Part shown: positions 32,007 to 53,851 of the stretch, one piece after another
How the letters are laid out: the number at the start of each line of letters is the position of its first letter
Numbering within the stretch: position 1 is the stretch's first letter
NCBI GenBank assembly: GCA_964561135.1
Contig: CAZLOB010000022.1
Coordinates: 5,718-69,717, forward strand
DNA from: an uncultured Elusimicrobia bacterium
GTDB lineage: Bacteria; Elusimicrobiota; Endomicrobiia; DTEH01
Length of the DNA: 64,000 nt
Reading direction: 5' to 3'
Made by a program: the position numbers and the translations under genes
The notes under the pieces: generated by a model
Told to the model about the DNA's origin: nothing
The model's input: only the letters and a program-made list of their open reading frames with translations
Database searches by the model: none

Positions 32007-32741
32007 ATGAACTTTATAAAAAAATTTTTTGAATTATTCATTTACAGTTTTTTTCCAAAAATATGTTTTTATTGCAATAAACCAATTGATTATTTTTCTA
32101 ACTTGCCTTTATGCAACAATTGTGTCAACAAAATAAAAATTATCGATGGACTCGTATGTGACAAGTGTGGTCTTCCATTATACAGTGGGGGAAAATTTTG
32201 TTATAACTGTAGAAAACAAGAAAGAAAATTTTATTTTGATTTTGTCCGTGGTGTGGTTGAGTACAGAGAACCAATAAAAACATTAATTCATGAATTTAAA
32301 TATAACAAAAAAACATTCCTTGTTTCTTTCTTAAGCAATATTTTCACAAAAGGATATGAAAAAGAATTTAAGAATATAAAAATTGATATTGTATGTTGTG
32401 TCCCAATGCATAGAATAAAAAAGTTTTTACGCGGGTTTAACCAAGCAGAACTTCTTGCTAAAGTTTTAGCAAAAAAATTTTATCTAAACTTCATTCCAGA
32501 TCTCTTAATAAGAAAAAAATATACTGTTTCACAATTCAAACTTTCACAACAAAAACGTATTGAAAATGTCAAAGATGCGTTTGAAATAAATCATAAATTT
32601 GAAAACATAATAAAAGAAAAAAATGTTTTAATAATTGATGATGTTTGTACCACTGCTGAAACAATTAATCAATGTGCAAAAATGTTAAAAAAACATAAAG
32701 CAAAAAATGTTTATGGTTTTGTTTTAGCAAGAGATATATAA
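32007..32741 (+). CDS. comFC: ComF family protein (ComFC-like phosphoribosyltransferase with N-terminal zinc finger)
   Basis: The N-terminal 4-Cys pairs are CFYC..CNNC...CDKCGLP...CYNC. The C-terminus has a PRTase-type motif (LIIDDVCTTAET). Confidence 0.7.
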   Translation: MNFIKKFFELFIYSFFPKICFYCNKPIDYFSNLPLCNNCVNKIKIIDGLVCDKCGLPLYSGGKFCYNCRKQERKFYFDFVRGVVEYREPIKTLIHEFKYNKKTFLVSFLSNIFTKGYEKEFKNIKIDIVCCVPMHRIKKFLRGFNQAELLAKVLAKKFYLNFIPDLLIRKKYTVSQFKLSQQKRIENVKDAFEINHKFENIIKEKNVLIIDDVCTTAETINQCAKMLKKHKAKNVYGFVLARDI

Positions 32742-32789
32742 CTATGTATTGTTATATCTAACGAAATTTTGTAAAATAATAATAACAAT

Positions 32790-34085
32790 ATGAAACAAAA
32801 AGTGTTTTTTAAAACCTTTGGTTGCCAAATGAATGTTGCTGATTCTGAGTATGTGGCATCTCTGTTAGTTTCTAAAGAAAATTATGAAATAACGCAAAAT
32901 ATAAATGAAGCAGATTTAATAATAGTTAATACTTGCTGTGTGAGAAAACATGCTGAAGATAGAGAAAAGTCGTTTCTTGGACAATTGAAGAAAATAAAAC
33001 TTAAAAACAACTGCAAAATCATTGTTTTAGGCTGTCTTGTACAAAAAGCAAAAAACGAACTTAAAAGACAATTTCCATACATAGACCTATTTATTGGTCC
33101 TACAGAATATGAAAATCTTTGCCAAATTTTAGAAAATGAACTTGATTTTCAAATCACTAATCCACAAATACATATAAACGTGTTCAACAAAACAAGTTGT
33201 TTTGTACCAATAATGAAAGGTTGTAACAATTTTTGTTCATACTGTATTGTACCATATGTAAGAGGTAGGGAAGTCTCTATAGATATAAACAATATTATTA
33301 AAGAGGTCAACTTTTTACTTGACAACGGTGTTAAAGAAATTATACTTATCGGACAGAATGTTAACTCTTATAAATGGGACAACAATGGAAATATTATTAC
33401 ATTTGCAAAACTTTTAGAAAAAGTTGCAACTTTAAATACTGACAAAAAATACTGGGTTCGTTTCTTGACAAATCATCCAAAAGATATGAACTATGAAATT
33501 GTTAAAACAATAAAAACTTATAATAACATTTCACGACATATTCATCTTCCATTACAATCAGGCTCTAACAAGATCTTAGAACTTATGAACAGAAATTACA
33601 CTTTGGAAAAATACAAACAAATTGTAGAAATGATACGTTCTGAAATTCCTGAGATCTCTATAACTACAGACCTTATTGTTGGATTTCCCTACGAAACAGA
33701 AGAAGATTTTAAACAAACACTACAGGCTGTAAAAGATATACAATTTGATGCAGCATTTGTTTTTAAATATTCCCCAAGAGAAGGGACAAAAGCTTATTTA
33801 TTACCTGATAACGTCCCAAAAGAAGTAAAAGAAAAAAGACATGCTGAATTATTGTCTTTATGTGACGGTATCGCTTCTCAAAAAAATAAAAAATATCTTG
33901 AAAAAGAAGTGGAAACATTAATTATTTCGCAAAACTTTAAACATGCAAAAAGTTATTATATCGGCAAAACTTTAGAAAACAAAACTGTTGAAATTATAAC
34001 AAAAAAAACTGGACTAGTAGGCAATTTTGTGAAAACAAAAATAAAAGAAGTAAAACTACATACTTTGATTGGTGAGCTGAGTTAA
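32790..34085 (+). CDS. miaB: Radical-SAM methylthiotransferase, MiaB family (tRNA i6A 2-methylthiolation; MiaB/RimO/MtaB subclass uncertain)
   Basis: An MTTase N-terminal domain (FKTFGCQMN) is followed by the radical SAM motif CSYCIVPYVRG and a C-terminal TRAM domain. Length is 431 aa. Confidence 0.7.
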   Translation: MKQKVFFKTFGCQMNVADSEYVASLLVSKENYEITQNINEADLIIVNTCCVRKHAEDREKSFLGQLKKIKLKNNCKIIVLGCLVQKAKNELKRQFPYIDLFIGPTEYENLCQILENELDFQITNPQIHINVFNKTSCFVPIMKGCNNFCSYCIVPYVRGREVSIDINNIIKEVNFLLDNGVKEIILIGQNVNSYKWDNNGNIITFAKLLEKVATLNTDKKYWVRFLTNHPKDMNYEIVKTIKTYNNISRHIHLPLQSGSNKILELMNRNYTLEKYKQIVEMIRSEIPEISITTDLIVGFPYETEEDFKQTLQAVKDIQFDAAFVFKYSPREGTKAYLLPDNVPKEVKEKRHAELLSLCDGIASQKNKKYLEKEVETLIISQNFKHAKSYYIGKTLENKTVEIITKKTGLVGNFVKTKIKEVKLHTLIGELS

Positions 34086-34086
34086 T

Positions 34087-36789
34087 ATGAAAGAATTACA
34101 AGAAATTAATCTTACACCTTTAATGAAACAATACCACCAAATAAAACAACAATATAAAGATTGTATACTAATGTTTCGTCTAGGCGATTTTTATGAAATG
34201 TTTGGTGAAGATGCGATAAAATCAGCGCCTGTTTTAGGTGTTGTTTTAACAAAGAGGCAAGGGGTACCAATGTGTGGTGTCCCATTCCACAGTGTTAACA
34301 ACTATATCTCAAAACTTCTTAATTGTGGATTCAAAGTTGCTATATGTGAACAAGTCGAAGATCCAAAACTTGCAAAAGGTGTAGTTAAAAGAGAAGTGGT
34401 AAGAGTTATAACTCCAGGAACAATTATTGAAGAAAATCTTCTTGATGCTAAAAAAAATAATTTCTTGACTTCTATAAATTTTGCTTTTGTCAAAAACAAA
34501 CTTTGTTTTGGTATTGCTAATGTTGATATTTCAACAGGTGATTTTTTAGTCACTCAATTTGAAGACCAAAATAGTTCCAAAATTATAGATGAGTTAATCA
34601 GGATCTCACCTTCTGAAATTGTTGCAAAAGAAACACAAAAAGAAGAAATTATCAAAATTGTAAAACAATACAAAGAAGTACATATAGAATTTTTAGAAGA
34701 TTGGTTCTTTGATGTATTAACAGCTGTAGAAAGAATTAAAGAGTATTATAAAATTTATTCTCTTGAAACATTTGGACTTGATATGACGAAACATGCAATT
34801 TTATTATCTTCTGTAGGCGGGTTATTAGAATACTTAAATAGGACACAAAAAAAATTGATACCAAAATTAAAAGGAATAAAATTTTATAACTTAGATGACT
34901 ACTTGTTTATGGACAGCAGCTGTATAAGAAATTTGGAGTTAGTAGAAAATCTTTATGATAGGACACAAAAAAATACTTTACTTGATGTTATCGACAAAAC
35001 ACAGACAGCCCAAGGTGCAAGATTATTACGAAGTTGGTTATTAAAACCATTAAAAGATGTAAAAGAAATTAATAATCGTTTATTAATTGTAGAAATGTTT
35101 TATAACGATGATACAAACAGACAAAAACTCAAAGATATTCTACGAAACATAGCAGATATTGAAAGAATAACAAATAGAATCACATCAAAAAATGCAACAC
35201 CAAAGGATCTTATCACACTAAAAGAATCTTTAGAATTAATACCTGAAATTAAAACATTATTACAACATATAATAAATTCTCAATTTGTTTTAAAACTTGA
35301 CGAACTACACAAAATGATCGATATTCCCGAATTAGAAGAAGTTAAACAACTTATAGAAAATAGTATAGTACCGGACGCGCCTACTGATATAAAAAAAGGA
35401 GGAGTTATCAAAAAAGGGTTTAATAAAGAACTTGATGAAATTAGAGAACTTTATTCTTCATCAAAAGAATGGTTGTTAAACTATCAAGAAGAACAACGAC
35501 GAAAAACACAAATACAGTCATTAAAAGTTGGATATACTTCTGTCTTCGGGTATTATATAGAAGTTACAAAATCTAATTTACATCTAATACCAAAAGAATA
35601 CATTAGGAAACAAACATTGAAAAATGCAGAACGGTTCACAACGCCTGAATTACAAGATTTTGAAAACAAAATCCTTTCAGCTGAAGAAAAAATTTTAAAT
35701 CTAGAAGAATATCTTTTCAATTCTGTAGTTGAACAAGTTGGACAATATGCTGAACAACTATATGAAGTAAGTTATAAGATAGCTTTAATAGATGTGTTTA
35801 GTAACCTTGCTGAAGTTGCAAAAAGAAATAATTATAAAAAACCTATTGTAGATGATTCATATATTATTGAATTAAAATCTTGTCGTCATCCTATAGTAGA
35901 ACAAATATTGCCTTACGGAAAGTTTATACCAAATGATGTATACCTTGACGGAGACAATGTAAAACTTATAATTTTAACAGGTCCTAATATGGCTGGAAAA
36001 TCAACTTATATAAGACAGGTTGCGTTGTGCACAATCTTAGCACAAATGGGAAGTTTTGTGCCAGCTGAATATTCACGTATAGGTGTTGTGGACAAAATTT
36101 TTGCTCGTATAGGTGCAGCTGATTATTTAGCAAAAGGATTGTCAACATTTATGGTTGAAATGCAAGAAACTGCTAATATACTTCATAATGCTACTGATAG
36201 AAGTTTGATAATTTTAGACGAAGTTGGACGTGGGACATCAACTTATGATGGTATCTCTATTGCTTGGGCTGTGATAGAATATCTTGTTAACAAACAAAAT
36301 TGGCCGAATAAAACCCATTGCCCTAAAACTTTGTTTGCTACACATTATTTTGAACTTACAGAACTTGAACAAAGGTATACTGGGATTAAAAATTTTAATG
36401 TTGCTGTTAAAGAATATAAAGACGAAATTGTATTTTTGTACAAAGTTATTGAAGGTTGTTCAGATAAATCTTATGGAATACATGTAGCAAAACTTGCTGG
36501 TATACCACAACAAGTTGTTAACCGGGCAAATATATTATTAAAATATTTACTTAACGCTGCTGCAAACATTGATAAAGCAACCAAATCTAAAAGTGTACAA
36601 CTACAACTAATCCATATTACTGAACAAAAAGAACAAGAAAAAAATTTTTTTAATGAAATATTGGTAAATCTAAAAAAAATTGATATAAACAAAATTACAC
36701 CATTAGATGCGTTTAATTTGTTACTACAATGGAAAAAAATGATAGAACAAAATACACAGGACCGGAACGACGAAAATATAAACGGTTAA
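34087..36789 (+). CDS. mutS: DNA mismatch repair protein MutS
   Basis: The 900-aa protein has an N-terminal mismatch-binding motif (GDFYEMFGEDA), Walker A GPNMAGKST, and DE(V)GRGTSTYDG. Confidence 0.9.
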   Translation: MKELQEINLTPLMKQYHQIKQQYKDCILMFRLGDFYEMFGEDAIKSAPVLGVVLTKRQGVPMCGVPFHSVNNYISKLLNCGFKVAICEQVEDPKLAKGVVKREVVRVITPGTIIEENLLDAKKNNFLTSINFAFVKNKLCFGIANVDISTGDFLVTQFEDQNSSKIIDELIRISPSEIVAKETQKEEIIKIVKQYKEVHIEFLEDWFFDVLTAVERIKEYYKIYSLETFGLDMTKHAILLSSVGGLLEYLNRTQKKLIPKLKGIKFYNLDDYLFMDSSCIRNLELVENLYDRTQKNTLLDVIDKTQTAQGARLLRSWLLKPLKDVKEINNRLLIVEMFYNDDTNRQKLKDILRNIADIERITNRITSKNATPKDLITLKESLELIPEIKTLLQHIINSQFVLKLDELHKMIDIPELEEVKQLIENSIVPDAPTDIKKGGVIKKGFNKELDEIRELYSSSKEWLLNYQEEQRRKTQIQSLKVGYTSVFGYYIEVTKSNLHLIPKEYIRKQTLKNAERFTTPELQDFENKILSAEEKILNLEEYLFNSVVEQVGQYAEQLYEVSYKIALIDVFSNLAEVAKRNNYKKPIVDDSYIIELKSCRHPIVEQILPYGKFIPNDVYLDGDNVKLIILTGPNMAGKSTYIRQVALCTILAQMGSFVPAEYSRIGVVDKIFARIGAADYLAKGLSTFMVEMQETANILHNATDRSLIILDEVGRGTSTYDGISIAWAVIEYLVNKQNWPNKTHCPKTLFATHYFELTELEQRYTGIKNFNVAVKEYKDEIVFLYKVIEGCSDKSYGIHVAKLAGIPQQVVNRANILLKYLLNAAANIDKATKSKSVQLQLIHITEQKEQEKNFFNEILVNLKKIDINKITPLDAFNLLLQWKKMIEQNTQDRNDENING

Positions 36790-37100
36790 AAATTTTTCAT
36801 CTTTCTATACCCATAGTCCTAAAAACTAATACTGAAGATTTATCATTTCCAGGGATACTTTTAGACATCTCTGCTAATGGGATAGGAATTCTTACTTTTA
36901 AAGAAATACCTGTTAACACTATTGTCAATTTACAAATTAATTTACATCAGATAAAAACTGATTGTATTAAAGCAAAAGTTGTATGGACAAAACAATTAGA
37001 TAAAACATATAGAGCTGGGTTACAATTTATAGAAATTTCAAAGAAAGATTTTGAACAAATATCAGATTATGTTGAACAACATCTAATGGAAGATTTTTGA
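36729..37100 (+). CDS. PilZ domain protein (predicted c-di-GMP receptor)
   Basis: Both PilZ signature motifs are present: RRxxxR (ERRKYKR) near the N-terminus and DxSxxG (DISANG). It overlaps the mutS 3' end by ~60 nt in another frame, and its stop overlaps the mutL start. Confidence 0.7.
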   Translation: MEKNDRTKYTGPERRKYKRLKIFHLSIPIVLKTNTEDLSFPGILLDISANGIGILTFKEIPVNTIVNLQINLHQIKTDCIKAKVVWTKQLDKTYRAGLQFIEISKKDFEQISDYVEQHLMEDF

Positions 37101-38818
37101 CTATGACCAAAATTAAGATCTTACCACCTGAGGTTTATACACGTATCGCAGCAGGTGAAGTTGTTGAACGACCATCTAATGTTGTCAAAGAACTTGTAGA
37201 AAATAGTATTGATGCTAACGCCACTGAAATAACAATAGAAATTGTTTCTTCTGGAAGGAAACTTATTCGTGTAGCAGATAACGGTTGCGGTATGACAAAA
37301 GATGATCTGTTATTATCAGTTAAACCACATGCTACAAGTAAAATAGAAAAATTTGAAGATATATATAGTTTAACAACTTTAGGATTTCGTGGAGAAGCCT
37401 TAGCTTCAATTTCAAATGTTTCTAAACTTACAATTATTTCAAAAACAGAAGAACAACCTCTCGGATACCAAATCGTTGTTCATGGTGGAGAAATTATATC
37501 AGTAAAAGAATGTTCATGTAATAAAGGAACGATTGTTGAAGTTAAAGATTTGTTTTACAACACTCCTGCAAGACTTAAATTTTTAAAATCTGATTATACA
37601 GAAAAAGTACATGTTACACGTACTGTTGAAGAATATGCAATTGCCTATCCTGAAATTTCGTTTAAGTTCTATTCAGATAACGAACTTGTCTTTTCAACAG
37701 AAGCTACCACAAAACTTGTTAGTAGATTAAAAGATATTATAAAAAAAGATATTGTGAAAGACATGTTATACATTGCTCATACTGAAGATAACATTTGTAT
37801 CTACGGATTTATAACACCGATAGAATTTACACAAGTTAACAAATCTTTACAAATGTTTTATGTTAACAAAAGACCCGTTACTTTACGTATTTTATCACAA
37901 GCGTTATATGATGCATACAGGGATAGTTTACCTACTGGTAGACATCCTGGAGCGGTTATTTTTATCAATATCTCGTCAGATTTGATTGATGTTAATGTAC
38001 ATCCAACAAAACGTGTTATAAAGTTTAAAGATGAAGATTATGTATATGAAACACTTAAAAATTTGTTCAAAAAAACATTAAAAGAATATTACACTAAAAC
38101 ATATAAAATTGAAACTGGACAACCAATACAAACTTTAACAATAACACAAAAAGAAAAACAACTAACAGAAACAAAAGTTGAACAAAAACAAACAGAGTTG
38201 GAATTACGGTATGAACAACCTATTTTAAACTATGAAAAACTTGGACTACAAAATTTTGTATATTTGGGTCAACTACATAGAACATATCTGTTGTTTGAAA
38301 CACAAGAAGGTTTGTTATTAATAGACCAACATGCAGCAAGTGAACGTATACTTTTTGAAAAATTTATGAAATCAAAAAATGTCCAAATACAGAAATTGCT
38401 TATTCCATTAAATATAGAACTAAAACCCTCAGATTTTGAATCTATAAAGCCATATATAGACCTACTTAATACTTTAGGGTTTGAAGTAACAATTTCTGGT
38501 AAGAGTTCAATAGGGTTTGCTAGTATTCCATCATTATTCAATATACAAGATGTGAAAGATTTTATTCTAAGATTTATAGAAAATCTTATGGAAGATATAA
38601 AAAATGAAATTAATAATGTTACTCCTAAAGAAAAAATTATCCGTAGTGCATGTCGTGCTGCAATAAAAGCTAATGAACTATTAGCAATATCTGAAGTTAA
38701 TGCTTTAATATCAGATTTGTCTAATTGTGAACAACCTTTTTTTTGTCCTCATGGTAGACCTACTATAATCAAACTTGAGTTAGAAAAAATTGAAAAACTT
38801 TTTTCACGACGTAAATGA
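37097..38818 (+). CDS. mutL: DNA mismatch repair protein MutL
   Basis: GHKL ATPase motifs (ELVENSIDA, DNGCGM, GFRGEAL) are present with a C-terminal dimerisation domain. The C-terminal region CPHGRP resembles the MutL endonuclease-type zinc motif. Confidence 0.85.
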   Translation: MTMTKIKILPPEVYTRIAAGEVVERPSNVVKELVENSIDANATEITIEIVSSGRKLIRVADNGCGMTKDDLLLSVKPHATSKIEKFEDIYSLTTLGFRGEALASISNVSKLTIISKTEEQPLGYQIVVHGGEIISVKECSCNKGTIVEVKDLFYNTPARLKFLKSDYTEKVHVTRTVEEYAIAYPEISFKFYSDNELVFSTEATTKLVSRLKDIIKKDIVKDMLYIAHTEDNICIYGFITPIEFTQVNKSLQMFYVNKRPVTLRILSQALYDAYRDSLPTGRHPGAVIFINISSDLIDVNVHPTKRVIKFKDEDYVYETLKNLFKKTLKEYYTKTYKIETGQPIQTLTITQKEKQLTETKVEQKQTELELRYEQPILNYEKLGLQNFVYLGQLHRTYLLFETQEGLLLIDQHAASERILFEKFMKSKNVQIQKLLIPLNIELKPSDFESIKPYIDLLNTLGFEVTISGKSSIGFASIPSLFNIQDVKDFILRFIENLMEDIKNEINNVTPKEKIIRSACRAAIKANELLAISEVNALISDLSNCEQPFFCPHGRPTIIKLELEKIEKLFSRRK

Positions 38819-39762
38819 ACAACAAAGTTGTTCTCATTGTTGGACCAACAGCTTCAGGGAAAACAGAAGTTGCTGTTGAACTTTGCCAAAAATTACCCGC
38901 TGAAATAATATCAGCTGATTCTAGACAAGTTTATAAATACTTAACAATAGGTACAAACAAACCTGTTGGTGAATGGATTGGGGAGGAATATTTGTATAAA
39001 AACATACCTTACCATTTAGTTGATTTTCTTGAGCCACACTTGTATTACGATGCAAACAGGTTTTATACTGACGCTTCATCTTTAATCAATAGAATTTGGT
39101 CAAAAAATAAAATCCCCATTGTTGTTGGTGGGACAGGGTTATATATCAAAACAATTACCGAAGGGATCACTATATTACCTAAAAAAAATGAGAAAATAAG
39201 AAATTACTTAACACAGCTTGCAATATTGTATGGAAAAAACTATCTTTATAATATGCTTAAAACTTATGACCCACAACGGGCAAAAGAAATACATCCAAAT
39301 AATACACAAAGAATAATACGTTCATTAGAAATTATTCTTCAAACAGGTAAACCTTTTACACAAATTGTTTCAGAAAATCCTAAAACAAAATCTTATGATA
39401 CAATTATCTTTGGTCTTTATTATGATAAAAAAACTTTGTTTCACAAAGTCACTGAACGTACAAAACAAATGTTTCAAATTGGTATCGTAGAAGAAACAAA
39501 ACAACTTTTAGCAAAAGGTATTAAGGAAACATCTCCTGCGTTTAGTTCTATAGGTTACCATTGGGTAATAAAATATATAAACCACGAAATCTCGTTGGAA
39601 GAAACACAAAAAAATTTTATCAAAGATACTATGGACTACATTAAACGACAATTAGTATGGTTTAAAAAAGATAAAAACATACAATGGATAAACTGTGAAG
39701 ATATGTCAATAAAACACATTGTGGAATATATTTATGAAATAATATCAAAAATTTGTTTCTAA
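38815..39762 (+). CDS. miaA: tRNA dimethylallyltransferase
   Basis: The P-loop is GPTASGKT, and the IPT-family motif ISADSRQVY is present. Confidence 0.8.
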   Translation: MNNKVVLIVGPTASGKTEVAVELCQKLPAEIISADSRQVYKYLTIGTNKPVGEWIGEEYLYKNIPYHLVDFLEPHLYYDANRFYTDASSLINRIWSKNKIPIVVGGTGLYIKTITEGITILPKKNEKIRNYLTQLAILYGKNYLYNMLKTYDPQRAKEIHPNNTQRIIRSLEIILQTGKPFTQIVSENPKTKSYDTIIFGLYYDKKTLFHKVTERTKQMFQIGIVEETKQLLAKGIKETSPAFSSIGYHWVIKYINHEISLEETQKNFIKDTMDYIKRQLVWFKKDKNIQWINCEDMSIKHIVEYIYEIISKICF

Positions 39763-39777
39763 ACAACTTATAATGCT

Positions 39778-41058
39778 ATGGAAAAAGTTGTCACTGTAGG
39801 AACAGTTTTAAAATCTGCTGGGAAAAAAGCTATTGAAGAAGAAAAAAAGTCTTTAGAAGAACTAAAAAATCTAGTTGCTACTGCGAATGGTATTGTGATA
39901 AAATCTTTTTTAGTAAAACGTGATAAAATTGACCCTGCTTATTACATCGGGAGAGGAAAAGCAGAAGAAATTAATGATTTTATTGTCCAAAACAATATTC
40001 GTACAGTTGTTTTTGATAACGAACTTTCTCCTGCACAAATAAAAAATTTAGAAGAAGTAATATCAGCAAAAATTGTAGATAGAACAAGGTTAATACTTGA
40101 CATTTTTGCACAACGAGCACATACAAAAGAAGCACAACTCCAAGTAGAACTTGCTCAACTTCAATATATGCTACCACGTCTCACTCAAAAAGGTATCTAT
40201 ATGGACAACCAAGTAGGTGGGATAGGTACAAGGGGACCCGGAGAAACAAAACTTGAATATGACAGACGTAAAATTATGCAACGTATCGAAAAAATAAAAG
40301 AAGAACTTAAAAAAGTTGTTGTTGCACGAAATGAACAAAAAAAGTTAAGAATGGAAACAAATATACCTTTAATAGCGTTAGTAGGTTACACTAATGTTGG
40401 TAAATCAACATTGTTTAACACTATTCTTAAATCTTCTTCTGCATATACAGATGACAAACTTTTTGCAACTTTAGACCCGTTAATAAGAAAAGTAGTCCTT
40501 CCTACAAAAGAAGAATTTTTGCTTGTAGACACTGTAGGGTTTATAAATAAACTGCCACATCATTTAGTAGAAAGTTTTAAGTCAACTTTAGAAATTGTTA
40601 AAGATGCAACATTATTATTAGAAATTATTGACATAACTGACGAAGATTATCATAAAAAAGAACTATTAGTAAAAAAAATTTTGGAAGAACTAAACGCAGA
40701 TAAAATTCCTATTATAAAAGTTTACAATAAAATCGATCTCTTAGATGAAAGATTACAAAAGGTATATATAAAAAAATTAAACAAAGAAAAGACAAGTGTT
40801 GTTATTTCAGCAAAGACAGGTTTTGGAATCGAAAAATTACTCAAAAAAATACTTTTCTTTATTGGACAAAATTATGTTACAAAAACAATAAATGTTCCTA
40901 ATAAATATTTTGAACTCTTGAATTTTATTAACAAACATTGCAAAGTAATTTCTTATAATATAAACCACAATCTATTAAATATAAAAATTTCAACAACAAA
41001 AGAAATTTATAATAAAATAATAAAAATGCTAAATGAATACACTGTTCACAATACCTAA
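39778..41058 (+). CDS. hflX: GTPase HflX
   Basis: The HflX N-terminal domain precedes G-domain motifs: G1 GYTNVGKST, G3 DTVGF, G4 NKID. Confidence 0.85.
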   Translation: MEKVVTVGTVLKSAGKKAIEEEKKSLEELKNLVATANGIVIKSFLVKRDKIDPAYYIGRGKAEEINDFIVQNNIRTVVFDNELSPAQIKNLEEVISAKIVDRTRLILDIFAQRAHTKEAQLQVELAQLQYMLPRLTQKGIYMDNQVGGIGTRGPGETKLEYDRRKIMQRIEKIKEELKKVVVARNEQKKLRMETNIPLIALVGYTNVGKSTLFNTILKSSSAYTDDKLFATLDPLIRKVVLPTKEEFLLVDTVGFINKLPHHLVESFKSTLEIVKDATLLLEIIDITDEDYHKKELLVKKILEELNADKIPIIKVYNKIDLLDERLQKVYIKKLNKEKTSVVISAKTGFGIEKLLKKILFFIGQNYVTKTINVPNKYFELLNFINKHCKVISYNINHNLLNIKISTTKEIYNKIIKMLNEYTVHNT

Positions 41059-41578
41059 TTTGTTGTCTATATTACGAATGTGTTTTACATTTTTATTTGT
41101 TCACAGTTTGTTGAATGATAAAATTACTAAATCTATTCTATTTTTAAGTATATGTATTCTTACTGACTTTCTTGATGGATTTTTTGCACGTGTCTTTAAA
41201 CAGAAAACAAAAATAGGTGTTTTATTAGACCCGCTTGCTGATAAAGTTTTAGTTATATCAACATTAATAGTTTTAATGGTAAAAAACTATTTACCATGGT
41301 GGTTCTTTAGTATAATAATTATACGAGAAACGTTAGTTATCGCAGGCTGGATCGTTACATACCAACATACACCACAATCTTTTCCAAAACCACGTTTCTT
41401 AGGAAAAGTTTCAATAGCATTGTTAATGATAACTTTAATAATCGTAGTTTTAAATATCCATCTACAATACGAAATTGTTTCTGATATAATAAATGAACTA
41501 TTTTTTTTAACATCAGTTTTTGTCACAGGTTCTTTGGTTGATTATATTGGATACGCTAGAAAAGTTTTCTCAAAATAA
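41033..41578 (+). CDS. CDP-alcohol phosphatidyltransferase family protein (PgsA-like)
   Basis: The N-terminus PNLLSILR and the conserved D..DG...AR.......G...D...D motif (DFLDGFFAR...GVLLDPLADK) are present, with multi-TM topology. Confidence 0.65.
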   Translation: MNTLFTIPNLLSILRMCFTFLFVHSLLNDKITKSILFLSICILTDFLDGFFARVFKQKTKIGVLLDPLADKVLVISTLIVLMVKNYLPWWFFSIIIIRETLVIAGWIVTYQHTPQSFPKPRFLGKVSIALLMITLIIVVLNIHLQYEIVSDIINELFFLTSVFVTGSLVDYIGYARKVFSK

Positions 41579-41597
41579 AATTTTGTTATAAAAGATA

Positions 41598-42182
41598 ATG
41601 AAAAATTTTATAATATTTTTTTTATCATACATAATTGGTGGTATCCCCACTGCATTTATATTAACTAAAATCTTTAAAGGAGTAGATATACGAACTGTTG
41701 GGTCAAAAAATCCTGGCACAACAAATGTGATACGTACAGCAGGATTTTTGTTAGGAGCAATAACATTTATCATAGATTTTTTGAAAGGAGGAATATCTAT
41801 ATTTATTACAAAAAAATATTTAGGATATGAATTTTTGCCACTAACAATGTTTTTTACCGTGCTTGGGCATACAACATCCCCTTTTCTTTCGTTTAAAGGG
41901 GGAAAAGGTGTTGCAACATTTTTTGGTTCGCTATTTGCAATTTCAACTAATATGTTTATATATAGCTGTATTTGTTTTGCAATTATATTTTTATTAACAC
42001 ATATTGTGTCAATATCTTCTATTGTTTCAGTATTTTTTTTCTTTTGGTATGTGTTGTTAAAAAATCCAGTTGAGTATCAAGACACAAAAATATTTTTTCT
42101 ATTAACAGTCTTATGGATAATCTATAGACACAAGTCAAATATCAAAAGGTTAATATTAAAAGAAGAAAAAAGGTTGTTTTAA
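41598..42182 (+). CDS. plsY: Glycerol-3-phosphate acyltransferase PlsY (acyl-phosphate dependent)
   Basis: The PlsY motifs are GSKNPGTTN and SFKGGKGVAT in a ~194-aa membrane protein. It is adjacent to gpsA. Confidence 0.8.
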   Translation: MKNFIIFFLSYIIGGIPTAFILTKIFKGVDIRTVGSKNPGTTNVIRTAGFLLGAITFIIDFLKGGISIFITKKYLGYEFLPLTMFFTVLGHTTSPFLSFKGGKGVATFFGSLFAISTNMFIYSCICFAIIFLLTHIVSISSIVSVFFFFWYVLLKNPVEYQDTKIFFLLTVLWIIYRHKSNIKRLILKEEKRLF

Positions 42183-42185
42183 AAT

Positions 42186-43190
42186 ATGAAAAACATTTTT
42201 ATAATAGGTGGAGGTTGTTGGGGGGCAACCTTAGCAACAATATATGCTAAGAAGGGATTAAAAATTACCATCTATGAACCTGTTTTGGAAAACTATAATT
42301 ATCTTAAACAACATCGTCACCCAAAATTTTTTAAGTATGTAAGTATCCCTGAAAATGTAAACATTACTAACGATGCGAATCAAATACAAAAAAATGATAT
42401 TGTTTTTTTAGTAATACCATCAATTTATGTGTTACCAATATTGAATAAATTTAAAAATGTAAATACTAAAGAAAAAATTTTTATTTCTTGTGTCAAAGGG
42501 TTTGAACCAAAAACTTTTAATTCTATCTCAAAAACAATTGCTGAAAGTTTAAAAATTAATAAAGAAAAAATTTTTGTCTTAAGTGGACCTTCTCATGCTG
42601 AAGAAGTTGCTATGGAAAAACCTACAGCAGTATCTTTAGCAGGAGTAAATAAGGATCTGCTTGTTAAATTACAAAAATTGTTAGCAACACAAATGTTAAG
42701 GATTTATGTCAATACAGACATTGTTGGGGTAGAAATAGCAGGAGCTGTGAAAAATATATATGCTATTGCTGCCGGCATCTGTGATGGTCTTAAGCTTGGT
42801 AATAATGCAAAAGCTGCTTTAATTACACGTTCATTAAAAGAAATGATATTAGTTGGCAACCTTTTCGGTGCAGAAACAAAAACCTTTTTTGGTTTATCAG
42901 GAATTGGTGATTTACTTACAACGGCTTATTCACCTTATTCAAGAAACCGTACTTTTGGCGAATATATTGCTAAATACAAAAACATAGAAAAAGCAAAACA
43001 AAAAATTCATACTTTTATCGAAGGTATCTACACTGTAAAAACAATTAATAAAATTGCAAAAAAATATTCTCTAGAGTTACCTATTGCAGAAGAAGTTTAT
43101 AAAATTATATATAAAAACAAACCGCCAGAACTTTCAATAAAATCTTTATTAACAAGACCGTTAAAAGAAGAGTTTAGTTGGTTAAAATGA
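42186..43190 (+). CDS. gpsA: NAD(P)H-dependent glycerol-3-phosphate dehydrogenase
   Basis: The N-terminal Rossmann motif is IIGGGCWGATLA, with a GpsA-family region GPSHAEEVA. Confidence 0.8.
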   Translation: MKNIFIIGGGCWGATLATIYAKKGLKITIYEPVLENYNYLKQHRHPKFFKYVSIPENVNITNDANQIQKNDIVFLVIPSIYVLPILNKFKNVNTKEKIFISCVKGFEPKTFNSISKTIAESLKINKEKIFVLSGPSHAEEVAMEKPTAVSLAGVNKDLLVKLQKLLATQMLRIYVNTDIVGVEIAGAVKNIYAIAAGICDGLKLGNNAKAALITRSLKEMILVGNLFGAETKTFFGLSGIGDLLTTAYSPYSRNRTFGEYIAKYKNIEKAKQKIHTFIEGIYTVKTINKIAKKYSLELPIAEEVYKIIYKNKPPELSIKSLLTRPLKEEFSWLK

Positions 43191-51613: not shown

Positions 51614-52735
51614 TTAAAAACGTTCTATTATATGAGATGGCCCTCCTCCTGATTCTATACCTTTTATTGCTAACATAAGTTCCTCTGGACTTGAAGCTGC
51701 TTGTAACGCATCTTCTAACGATACTAATCCTTTTTTGAATAATTCTAACAATGCTTGGTTAAATGTTTGCATACCGTAAATTTTTCCTTGTTTCATCAAG
51801 TTTATAATATCACCCAAATTTTTTTCTTCTATACATTTTTTAACAGCTGGAGTAACTACCAAAACTTCTACTGCAGGAATTAACCCTTTTTTATCTTTTC
51901 TTGGTAGCAATCTTTGAGAAATAATACCTTTTAAAGTATCGGCAAGTTGTAAACGTACTTGGTTCTGTTGGTGTGGTGGAAATATATCTATTATTCTATT
52001 TATTGTTTGAACTGCATCAACAGTGTGAACTGTTGAAAGAACAAGATGGCCAAGTTGTGCTGCAGTAAGTGCAGCTTGCATTGTTTCAAGATCTCTCATC
52101 TCTCCAATTAAAATTACATCCGGATTTTGTCTAACAACATGTCTTAATGCTGAAACAAAAGATGTTGTATCATAAGGCACTTCTCTTTGTGATATAATCG
52201 ACTTTTTATCTTTATATACAAACTCTATAGGATCCTCAATCGTTATAATATGTGCAGGACGTGTAGAATTGATATAATCGATCATACATGCAAGTGTTGT
52301 TGATTTTCCTGAGCCTGCAGGCCCTGTAACAAGAATAAACCCACGGACATTCTCTGCAAGTTTATAAACGACTTCCGGCAAATTTAGTTCTTCTCTATTT
52401 GGTATTTGGAAAGGTATACGTCTTATAGCTATATTTATTACACCACGTTGATAAAATATATTCATTCTTAAACGAGCAATATTCTCAAAATTGTATCCTA
52501 TATCACACTCTTTCTCTAATTCAAACCTTTTTTGTTGTTGTGGCGTAGTTATATAAAGAACAAAATTTTCAATATCTTCTTTAGAAAGTATAAATTGTTG
52601 ATCTTCAATTGGCTGTAATATTCCATTTATTCTAACATATGGTACACATTCACTTCTTAAATGTAGATCGCTAGCATTAGTTTCCAAAAATTTTCTTATT
52701 ATATTAAATATTTTTTCAATATTTTTATCACTCAT
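51614..52735 (-). CDS. pilT: Type IV pilus retraction ATPase PilT (twitching motility protein)
   Basis: Walker A is GPAGSGKST. The PilT-type Asp box, Walker B and His box are present with the AIRNLIRE-like region (ALTAAQLGHLVLSTVHT). Length is 373 aa. Confidence 0.85.
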   Translation of the reverse strand: MSDKNIEKIFNIIRKFLETNASDLHLRSECVPYVRINGILQPIEDQQFILSKEDIENFVLYITTPQQQKRFELEKECDIGYNFENIARLRMNIFYQRGVINIAIRRIPFQIPNREELNLPEVVYKLAENVRGFILVTGPAGSGKSTTLACMIDYINSTRPAHIITIEDPIEFVYKDKKSIISQREVPYDTTSFVSALRHVVRQNPDVILIGEMRDLETMQAALTAAQLGHLVLSTVHTVDAVQTINRIIDIFPPHQQNQVRLQLADTLKGIISQRLLPRKDKKGLIPAVEVLVVTPAVKKCIEEKNLGDIINLMKQGKIYGMQTFNQALLELFKKGLVSLEDALQAASSPEELMLAIKGIESGGGPSHIIERF

Positions 52736-52738
52736 AAA

Positions 52739-53851
52739 CTACCTCAACACACGTAATTTACCAGTTCTAAAAAACTTTTGTTGGATTTCTTTTTCTTCTA
52801 AAATAGCATCTTCTTTATCTACAACTATTTCGGTTTTGGTACGTAACGATCTTAATGTTTTTTTAGATTTTGTTTTTTCAACCATTTGGAACCCACTTGC
52901 GATAATCGTAACTTCAACTTTATCTTCAAAATCATTAGAATTTACATATCCTATATAAGTCACGACTTCTTTATCCATATAATGTTGTAAATATTCAAAC
53001 GCATTATAAACATCGTGCCCTGTTATATTTTTCCCACAAATATTTACTAACAAATTTTTTGCACTACGAATATCAAATTCTATAAATGGATTATTCATAG
53101 CATTTTTTATTGCTTTTTTTAAACAGCTTTCAGCACTTGCTTTTTCTACACCATACGACATAATTATCTGGCCTGCATTTTTTAATACATTTCTTGCATC
53201 AGCATAATCAACATTGACATACCCTGGTTGTGTCACAACTTTCCACATACTTAACACCGCTTTGTGTAAAACATCATCTGCTAATCTATATAAAACTTCA
53301 CCAAAACTTAAATTAGGATACATTTCTAAAAATTTATTGTTTGGTATAGTCAATAAAGCATCAACATATTTTTTTAATTCTGTGATTCCTGTAATTGCAT
53401 TATCCATTCTTATTTTTCCTTCGAAGTCGAAAGGTTTTGTTACAACAGCCACTGTTAAAACACCCAATTCTTTAGCCACTCTTGCAATAACAGGTGTTGC
53501 ACCAGTCCCCGTCCCTTTCCCCATACCACAGGTTAAAAACACCATATCTGTATGTGTCAATAAGTCACGAATTATATCTATTGATTCTTCCGCAGCCTGT
53601 TTCCCAACAAGCGGATCTCCTCCAGACCCTTGTCCTTTTGTAGTTTTTGGACCTATATGTATAACAATTGGCGCTTTTGACTCTTTTAAAGCTTGCAGAT
53701 CTGTGTTGATAGCGATCATTTCTACAGAAGGATCAATAAGACCAGCAGTAGCGATTCTATTTATAGCGTTCCCTCCTGCACCACCAATCCCCATTATTTT
53801 TATTCTTACAGGATATTTTTTTGTAACAATATTGTCATCCATAGAAATCAC
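52739..53851 (-). CDS. ftsZ: Cell division protein FtsZ
   Basis: The tubulin signature GGGTGTG and GIGGAGGNA are present. Length is 370 aa. Confidence 0.9.
   Translation of the reverse strand: MISMDDNIVTKKYPVRIKIMGIGGAGGNAINRIATAGLIDPSVEMIAINTDLQALKESKAPIVIHIGPKTTKGQGSGGDPLVGKQAAEESIDIIRDLLTHTDMVFLTCGMGKGTGTGATPVIARVAKELGVLTVAVVTKPFDFEGKIRMDNAITGITELKKYVDALLTIPNNKFLEMYPNLSFGEVLYRLADDVLHKAVLSMWKVVTQPGYVNVDYADARNVLKNAGQIIMSYGVEKASAESCLKKAIKNAMNNPFIEFDIRSAKNLLVNICGKNITGHDVYNAFEYLQHYMDKEVVTYIGYVNSNDFEDKVEVTIIASGFQMVEKTKSKKTLRSLRTKTEIVVDKEDAILEEKEIQQKFFRTGKLRVLR

Follow-up and report, generated by a model that had tools for sequence, protein, structure and literature searches.

What is a gene for a PilZ domain, a receptor of the second messenger cyclic diguanosine monophosphate (c-di-GMP), doing between the mismatch-repair genes mutS and mutL? 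The question is posed by a stretch of 64,000 nucleotides from an uncultured Elusimicrobia bacterium (contig CAZLOB010000022.1; the whole stretch is hereafter called the window), in which an open reading frame (ORF) for a protein of 123 residues, at positions 36729-37100 of the + strand, is wedged between mutS (34087-36789, +) and mutL (37103-38818, +). An earlier note, made from the sequence alone, had pointed out this arrangement and suggested looking for it in relatives. A PilZ gene proves to lie between mutS and mutL in every relative examined, and no close relative lacking it was encountered.

The translated ORF matches the Pfam PilZ model (PF07238) along its entire length (model positions 1-102 of 102) with 60.4 bits against a cut-off of 22.5 (E 2.3e-16). 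Both c-di-GMP-binding motifs named in the earlier note can be read in the sequence: RRKYKR, of the RxxxR type (residues 14-19; 36768-36785, +), and DISANG, of the [D/N]xSxxG type (residues 46-51; 36864-36881, +). In an alignment of 18 PilZ homologs, R15, R19, S48 and G51 are invariant and R14 and D46 are kept in at least 90%; a C-terminal H-L-x-x-D signature (H118, L119 and D122) is likewise invariant. Furthermore, RRxxxR or KRxxxR is present in 45 of 47 relatives (44 family proteins and those of loci L093, L094 and L095).

The fold was predicted with AlphaFold2 from 18 homologs. The model, with a predicted local distance difference test score (pLDDT) of 74, rising to 82-92 across residues 41-110, places strands within residues 28-102 and a C-terminal helix at residues 105-122, giving a β-barrel plus helix. 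The first 26 residues are disordered, as they would be expected to be when no ligand is bound. When the model was compared with the PDB using Foldseek, the 45 best matches were all PilZ domains, headed by the c-di-GMP-bound domains of YcgR, Alg44 and MotI, with MapZ further down. The profile score, the two motifs and the fold are those of the canonical PilZ family, and from its sequence the product of 36729-37100 is a stand-alone, single-domain canonical PilZ protein and a putative c-di-GMP receptor.

Several searches delimit the family to which this protein belongs. A word-indexed search of 5.8 billion proteins returned 29 clusters of homologs at 55-100% identity, and a profile search returned 42 clusters with at least 126 bits, followed by a sharp fall to 67 bits or less, the range of generic PilZ domains. 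Likewise, HMMER, run against 1.84 billion representatives at 50% identity, gave two matches at E ≤ 1e-30, one intermediate match (P0186, 107 bits) and then ordinary PilZ domains. The family of PilZ proteins encoded between mutS and mutL is small and sharply bounded; its members are 99-130 residues long, and the sources of the homologs are named as Endomicrobia, Endomicrobiia or Elusimicrobiota metagenome-assembled genomes. In the part of the gene that does not overlap mutS, the variability between relatives at codon positions 1, 2 and 3 is 0.32, 0.13 and 0.51, respectively, indicating purifying selection on the PilZ protein. Together with the homolog clusters, this pattern argues that the ORF is not a product of chance.

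The start codon, which the earlier note had left uncertain, is now largely settled. ATG 36729 is the sole start that retains RxxxR, with an in-frame stop at 36714-36716, 12 nucleotides upstream, and the residues M1 and E2 encoded from it are invariant in the 18 aligned homologs. Moreover, the G+C content of the gene is that of its flanking genes, and across ten loci the identities of PilZ, MutS and MutL to their counterparts in the window rise and fall together (70, 84 and 75% in L005; 47, 59 and 55% in L010), consistent with vertical inheritance along with the operon. Judged by these comparisons, the ORF is a genuine gene that has been inherited vertically and whose protein is maintained by purifying selection.

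The clade loci comprise L002-L011, found through PilZ, and L001, L093 and L094, found through MutL (n=13). The former represent eight distinct lineages, reaching down to 47% PilZ identity, plus duplicates. Since look-ups anchored on PilZ are blind to its absence, those anchored on MutL were added. The order mutS-PilZ-mutL was found in 13 of 13 loci, at PilZ identities of 47-100% and with the PilZ start inside mutS every time; the three loci anchored on MutL, where an absence could have appeared, all carry the gene. In the MutL search the clade is formed by 39 clusters at an identity of at least 55%, separated by a gap from the next match at 42%, and a scan of a genome collection with a single MutL protein led to one locus.

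The conservation extends well beyond the three genes. A miaB-like gene stands upstream of mutS in 12 of the 13 loci (the remaining locus, L009, starts inside mutS), and the block miaB-mutS-PilZ-mutL-miaA-hflX-pgsA-plsY-gpsA keeps its order across the clade (MutL identity at least 55%). All nine genes are present in nine distinct loci, while L008 and L009 are cut by the locus ends. The genes 5' of miaB vary, being feoB or genes for a metallophosphatase, an RRM protein, thioredoxin or NAD synthase. One of the loci, L011, is a contig of a large assembly (JAEDZT010001687.1, 1,101,983 nucleotides, number 1687 of GCA_017880035.1) that resembles a near-complete small genome of Endomicrobia type inside another organism's assembly, possibly that of a symbiont.

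How the gene is joined to mutS can be read at the level of single codons. The overlap of 61 nucleotides (36729-36789, +) encodes both the C-terminal tail of MutS (WKKMIEQNTQDRNDENING, then the stop) and PilZ residues 1-20, so that the last 20 codons of mutS are shared with the PilZ gene. The PilZ reading frame is -1 relative to mutS; the earlier note, too, had the gene begin in a different frame, about 60 nucleotides before the end of mutS. In the window PilZ, the RxxxR motif is encoded wholly within mutS. Overlaps with mutS of 61, 55, 46, 37 or 31 nucleotides occur in 13 of 13 clade loci, and L095, outside the clade, has one of 14 nucleotides. In all 13 clade loci the PilZ ATG consists of the last base of the preceding MutS codon and the TG of a conserved tryptophan codon, the sequence xxA TGG AAx being read as W-K in the MutS frame and, as ATG GAA, as M-E in the PilZ frame.

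The length of the overlap varies with the position of the MutS stop. The PilZ N-terminus is hydrophilic, without Leu, Ile, Val or Met, and in 10 of 12 loci MutS ends at the first PilZ residue pair able to encode a stop in its frame; in the window the stop is formed by TTA-A of PilZ L20-K21. Overlap length thus varies because MutS stops at the first possible stop within the PilZ N-terminus, and from these sequences we conclude that the MutS tail, 9-19 residues past W-K, is probably passive read-on rather than a designed element. Variability at codon positions 1, 2 and 3 in the overlap is 0.28, 0.13 and 0.21, lower than downstream. We rejected this as proof of selection in both frames, as it is confounded by composition: K, E, N, R and Y, residues with two-fold codons in a genome of 29% G+C (the value for the window), abound at the N-terminus of PilZ. 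Composition accounts for much of the low variability, and so we make no claim of selection on the MutS tail. The comparison of the mutS 3' overlap suggested in the earlier note therefore yields lower variability at all positions, without the conclusion about MutS.

On the other side of the gene, the earlier description needs correction. PilZ ends at TGA 37098-37100 (context TTTTGACTATGACC), and the mutL start indicated by homology is ATG 37103, two nucleotides past this stop, where the relatives all read M-[T/N]-K-I-K-I-L-P-P-E; the ATGA in which the PilZ stop was said to overlap the mutL start is not in the sequence. TTG at 37097, an alternative mutL start, does overlap the stop (TTGA), and a true ATGA junction exists in the relative L001. 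Between relatives, the distance from the PilZ stop to the mutL start ranges from a 4-nucleotide overlap to 23 nucleotides apart, a spacing that is, as far as sequence can tell, typical of coupled genes. Likewise, the PilZ start lies within the ORF that precedes it, in the same orientation, and does so in the relatives too, which is the layout of a coupled pair.

Might PilZ be no independent gene at all but the end of a MutS-PilZ fusion, made by programmed -1 frameshifting or transcriptional slippage at a run of seven adenines (A7; 36733-36739, +) just past the PilZ ATG? The PilZ gene does lie in the -1 frame of mutS, its frame opens just 12 nucleotides before the ATG, and A7 follows the ATG in the window and in L001, L005 and L009. 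However, the run is not a conserved slippery site, being absent from L002 (ATGGAAACG) and from L004 and L011 (ATGGAAAGA), which have GAAACG or GAAAGA instead. M1 and E2 are invariant, the homologs are all called as separate small proteins, and in L095 the overlap of 14 nucleotides has another frame offset. Moreover, no MutS-PilZ fusion was found among the 1.84 billion representatives (best 150). Since the run is not conserved and fusion proteins were not found, we rejected this explanation, which we regard as most improbable. A homolog from the same 90% cluster, P0184 (130 residues, on a Logan contig of 1877 nucleotides), represents the window locus with A6 in place of A7. In that version QWKK would be the end of MutS, and PilZ would begin further upstream, at ATG 36707 (MRLICYYNGKNDRTKY...). 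On this single short contig, A6 may have arisen as an error in sequencing, or the homopolymer may truly vary in length, in a way that both genes tolerate.

How far back the association reaches was judged from more distant loci. The nearest outgroup MutL, P0103 of locus L095 (40% G+C), is 42% identical to that of the window, with 50% for MutS and 28% for PilZ. In L095 a PilZ gene (1861-2349, +) again lies between mutS and mutL, overlapping in a frame offset other than that in the window, and carries the motifs RRQHKR and NLAAGG (NxAxxG). The gene after mutL in L095 encodes a GH31 glycosidase, not miaA; the triad mutS-PilZ-mutL is kept where the neighbour has changed, and hence outlives the rest of the block. 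The L095 protein has a 20-residue insertion after RxxxR and a Cys-rich C-terminal extension, C-x12-C-x3-C-x6-C (...VCFTNCHYYKLCTKK), neither of which is present in the window's family; from its cysteines, this tail is possibly metal-binding.

The contig of L015 (41% G+C), whose MutL is 38% identical to that of the window and 40% to that of L095, begins inside an ORF that precedes mutL and of which the final 30 codons are present (2-94, +). The motif C-x3-C-x-YY-x-LC-x-K in this fragment matches the L095 PilZ tail and occurs in no other locus examined, which is suggestive only of a third lineage with PilZ upstream of mutL. Immediately downstream of mutL, L015 encodes a PilZ-4HBT thioesterase fusion of 270 residues (2038-2850, +), so that PilZ-domain genes may flank mutL on both sides in this locus.

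As a background, a metagenome scan with a MutL alignment gave at least 80 distant MutL loci at 30-38% identity, 71 of them with at least 300 nucleotides upstream. With the HMMER filters off, none of these 71 has a PilZ gene directly upstream of mutL among the matches listed, which bears out the earlier view of the arrangement as non-standard. In about 11 of the 71, again among the matches listed, mutS abuts mutL with nothing between; in L020, for example, MutS ends in EWKKRINE directly before mutL. No relative of the PilZ family was found in another gene context, and the closest PilZ outside the family that was examined (P0044), from a polysaccharide-export locus, scores as a generic PilZ.

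Are the three genes expressed together? No terminator-like hairpin was found between mutS, PilZ and mutL, and an Rfam scan detected no family in the region and only two tRNAs across the whole window. A promoter scan gave 83 sites against 69 expected by chance and is uninformative in such AT-rich DNA. A Shine-Dalgarno-like motif within 22 nucleotides of the start was detected for 17 of 59 window genes (29%); the motif being scarce, its absence before PilZ is normal and says little, and the host appears, from its gene starts, to rely largely on initiation independent of Shine-Dalgarno sequences. We infer co-transcription of mutS, PilZ and mutL, and a translational coupling of PilZ to both neighbours by which the three proteins are made together. 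PilZ could be initiated at its A-rich, unstructured start region during mutS translation, or by re-initiation of ribosomes that end at the mutS stop.

With regard to function, the reading that we favour, tentatively and at somewhat under even confidence, is that the PilZ protein would be a c-di-GMP-dependent adaptor, co-expressed with MutS and MutL and acting on them. As in other PilZ proteins of the stand-alone type, c-di-GMP would be bound by the RxxxR loop near the N-terminus together with the DxSxxG strand, and the loaded protein would dock on a partner protein, for which the conserved C-terminal helix (H118, L119, D122) offers a plausible surface. The proposed partner is MutS and/or MutL, a protein made alongside being the most economical target, and the c-di-GMP level would tune mismatch repair, either by inhibition or by activation, and with it the rate of mutation or the barrier to homeologous recombination. 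The retention of the triad in L095, and probably in L015, despite a changed neighbourhood slightly favours a functional link. Several findings weigh against the adaptor, however. MutS-PilZ or MutL-PilZ fusions were absent from the best 150 of the 1.84 billion representatives, as were MutL-PilZ fusions from the top 120 MutL homologs, and no ORF bearing GGDEF, EAL or HD-GYP motifs was found either in the 64 kb of the window or in some 150 kb of related loci. The nine-gene block mixes tRNA modification, a GTPase and phospholipid synthesis, and since this heterogeneous block is conserved whole, adjacency alone is weak evidence within the clade; support from outside the clade comes from a single complete locus (L095) and a single fragment (L015). 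Once inserted between two coupled genes, with an overlap into one of them, a gene is difficult to relocate, and its position may persist without any functional link. Moreover, a sub-clade of the family (P0034, P0035, P0037, P0038 and L093, 4622-4996) has KRxxxR with DxSxxN (e.g. DISTTN), which suggests that ligand binding is weakened or altered in part of the family; together with NxAxxG in L095, it hints at a possible loosening of the dependence on ligand in some lineages.

Nearly equal in standing to the adaptor is the explanation that PilZ is a functional c-di-GMP receptor with its target elsewhere (e.g. type IV pili or the envelope), which entered a housekeeping superoperon by one insertion and has been locked in by the cohesion of the flanking genes and the mutS overlap. 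We consider this quite possible, without calling it probable. The conservation of a functionally mixed block from miaB to gpsA and the missing fusion proteins fit it well, the passive dependence of overlap length on PilZ N-terminal composition suggests a historical accident, and a PilT/T2SSE-type ATPase gene in the window (51614-52735, -) indicates that the organism has members of the classical target class of PilZ-type regulators. It accounts less readily for the triad in L095, with its different downstream neighbour, and probably in L015, for a family found nowhere else (P0044, outside such a context, being generic), and for the divergence of PilZ in step with MutS and MutL. The earlier note had named both modulation of MutS/MutL and operon hitch-hiking; the sequence data raise the former, the triad being kept in a distant lineage with other neighbours, without deciding between the two. 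An accessory mismatch-repair subunit freed from c-di-GMP, with the PilZ fold serving as a protein-binding module as in PA2960 and XAC1133, appears improbable. The DxSxxN sub-clade, NxAxxG in L095 and the lack of c-di-GMP enzymes in the window and in the related loci would fit such a subunit, but both motifs are canonical in most of the family, including the window, and the invariance of R15, R19, S48 and G51 argues for selected ligand binding; known non-binding PilZ proteins, furthermore, lack the N-terminal motif altogether (10.1101/814665).

A bolder claim would be that c-di-GMP directly gates mismatch repair, the ligand-loaded PilZ protein binding MutS or MutL and switching repair up or down, in an association that dates to the ancestor of lineages whose MutL proteins are about 40% identical. 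We hold this to be rather unlikely. The main known role of c-di-GMP is to switch cells between a motile and a sessile existence. Mismatch repair generally counts as a constitutive housekeeping function that changes only through mutation, hypermutator strains being the example. If the claim were true, a second messenger would set the mutation rate or the recombination barrier, a c-di-GMP output not described before, and a receptor hard-wired in the mutS-mutL operon would give a testable handle on the question of whether mutation and recombination rates are physiologically regulated. Even if PilZ acts elsewhere, the locus offers a clean, conserved dual-coding overlap in which a conserved Trp codon of mutS anchors the PilZ start and mutS sequence also encodes the ligand-binding motif of PilZ.

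The genes around the triad form a tightly packed string (32007-43190) headed by a gene for a ComF-like phosphoribosyltransferase (32007-32741, +). The conserved block opens with the miaB-like radical-SAM methylthiotransferase gene (32790-34085, +; Pfam UPF0004 and Radical_SAM). MutS has 900 residues (Pfam MutS_I-V; NCBIfam MutS equivalog, 1037 bits), and MutL is of the endonuclease type, with the motif DQHAASERILFE (Pfam HATPase_c_3, DNA_mis_repair and MutL_C; NCBIfam MutL, 520 bits). Then follow miaA, for a tRNA isopentenyltransferase (38815-39762, +; Pfam IPPT, 245 bits), which overlaps the mutL stop by 4 nucleotides; hflX, for a GTPase (39778-41058, +; Pfam), in the same order as in related loci; and pgsA, plsY and gpsA (41033-43190, +; Pfam), with which the conserved block continues. 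Many adjoining genes of the window overlap, by 1-40 nucleotides. Elsewhere in the window, the PilT/T2SSE-type ATPase gene lies directly downstream of ftsA-ftsZ (ftsZ, 52739-53851, -), at the end of a cluster for cell division and the cell wall, an unusual neighbour for ftsZ.

Several links between c-di-GMP and DNA repair have been described. In Vibrio cholerae, the glycosylase gene tag is induced by c-di-GMP through VpsT/VpsR. The diguanylate cyclase AdrA of P. fluorescens SBW25 is reported to interact with UvrA homologs (10.64898/2026.05.12.724550), and DNA repair is listed among c-di-GMP-regulated processes by Galperin and Chou (10.1101/814665), who also review stand-alone PilZ proteins with intact motifs as c-di-GMP-dependent adaptors. 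The known links run through transcription factors or connect a cyclase with excision repair; none involves a PilZ receptor, MutS or MutL. Full-text literature searches brought up neither a mutS-mutL operon with a PilZ gene nor a link between c-di-GMP and mismatch repair; those on Endomicrobia with c-di-GMP, or on Elusimicrobia with PilZ or diguanylate cyclase, gave no relevant results either.

Among proteins of known structure, the best matches to the PilZ barrel are YcgR and MotI (DgrA) (PDB 5Y6G, 5Y6F and 5VX6; Foldseek E 5e-5 to 2e-4), and the PilZ domain of YcgR acts on the flagellar motor. These proteins have an extra N-terminal PilZN/YcgR_N domain and 210-250 residues, whereas the window protein is one domain of 123 residues; the automatic JGI name of several homologs, 'c-di-GMP-binding flagellar brake protein YcgR', is hence an over-annotation. 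PA2960 and XAC1133/Xc1028, which bridge FimX and PilB, exemplify the stand-alone PilZ fold as an adaptor between proteins. Their non-binding type was excluded for the window protein, in which RxxxR and DxSxxG are present and conserved, as was the tetramer-forming tPilZ type represented by XCC6012 (two long inserted helices, about 180 residues), since the window PilZ has no such insertion; XCC6012 structures align over 84 columns only and rank 37 or lower in Foldseek.

The closest parallel in architecture is MapZ (PA4608 of P. aeruginosa; PDB 5XLY and 5Y4R), likewise a single PilZ domain of about 120 residues with a C-terminal helix and canonical motifs, which matches the model at Foldseek ranks 26, 28 and 36 with template modelling scores of about 0.6. 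By analogy, we assume for the window protein the mode of MapZ, ligand-dependent docking on another protein, which for MapZ is the methyltransferase CheR1. Unlike the window PilZ, however, MapZ (13-14% identity) is not encoded with DNA-repair genes and overlaps no neighbour. The order of genes in E. coli is amiB-mutL-miaA-hfq-hflX, and in many Firmicutes miaB-mutS-mutL-miaA. The backbone of the window, miaB-mutS-mutL-miaA-hflX, is that of such standard operons and differs from them by the third gene, inserted between mutS and mutL and overlapping mutS. The receptor fold itself is ordinary; its setting, conserved and dual-coding, is undescribed in the literature searched.

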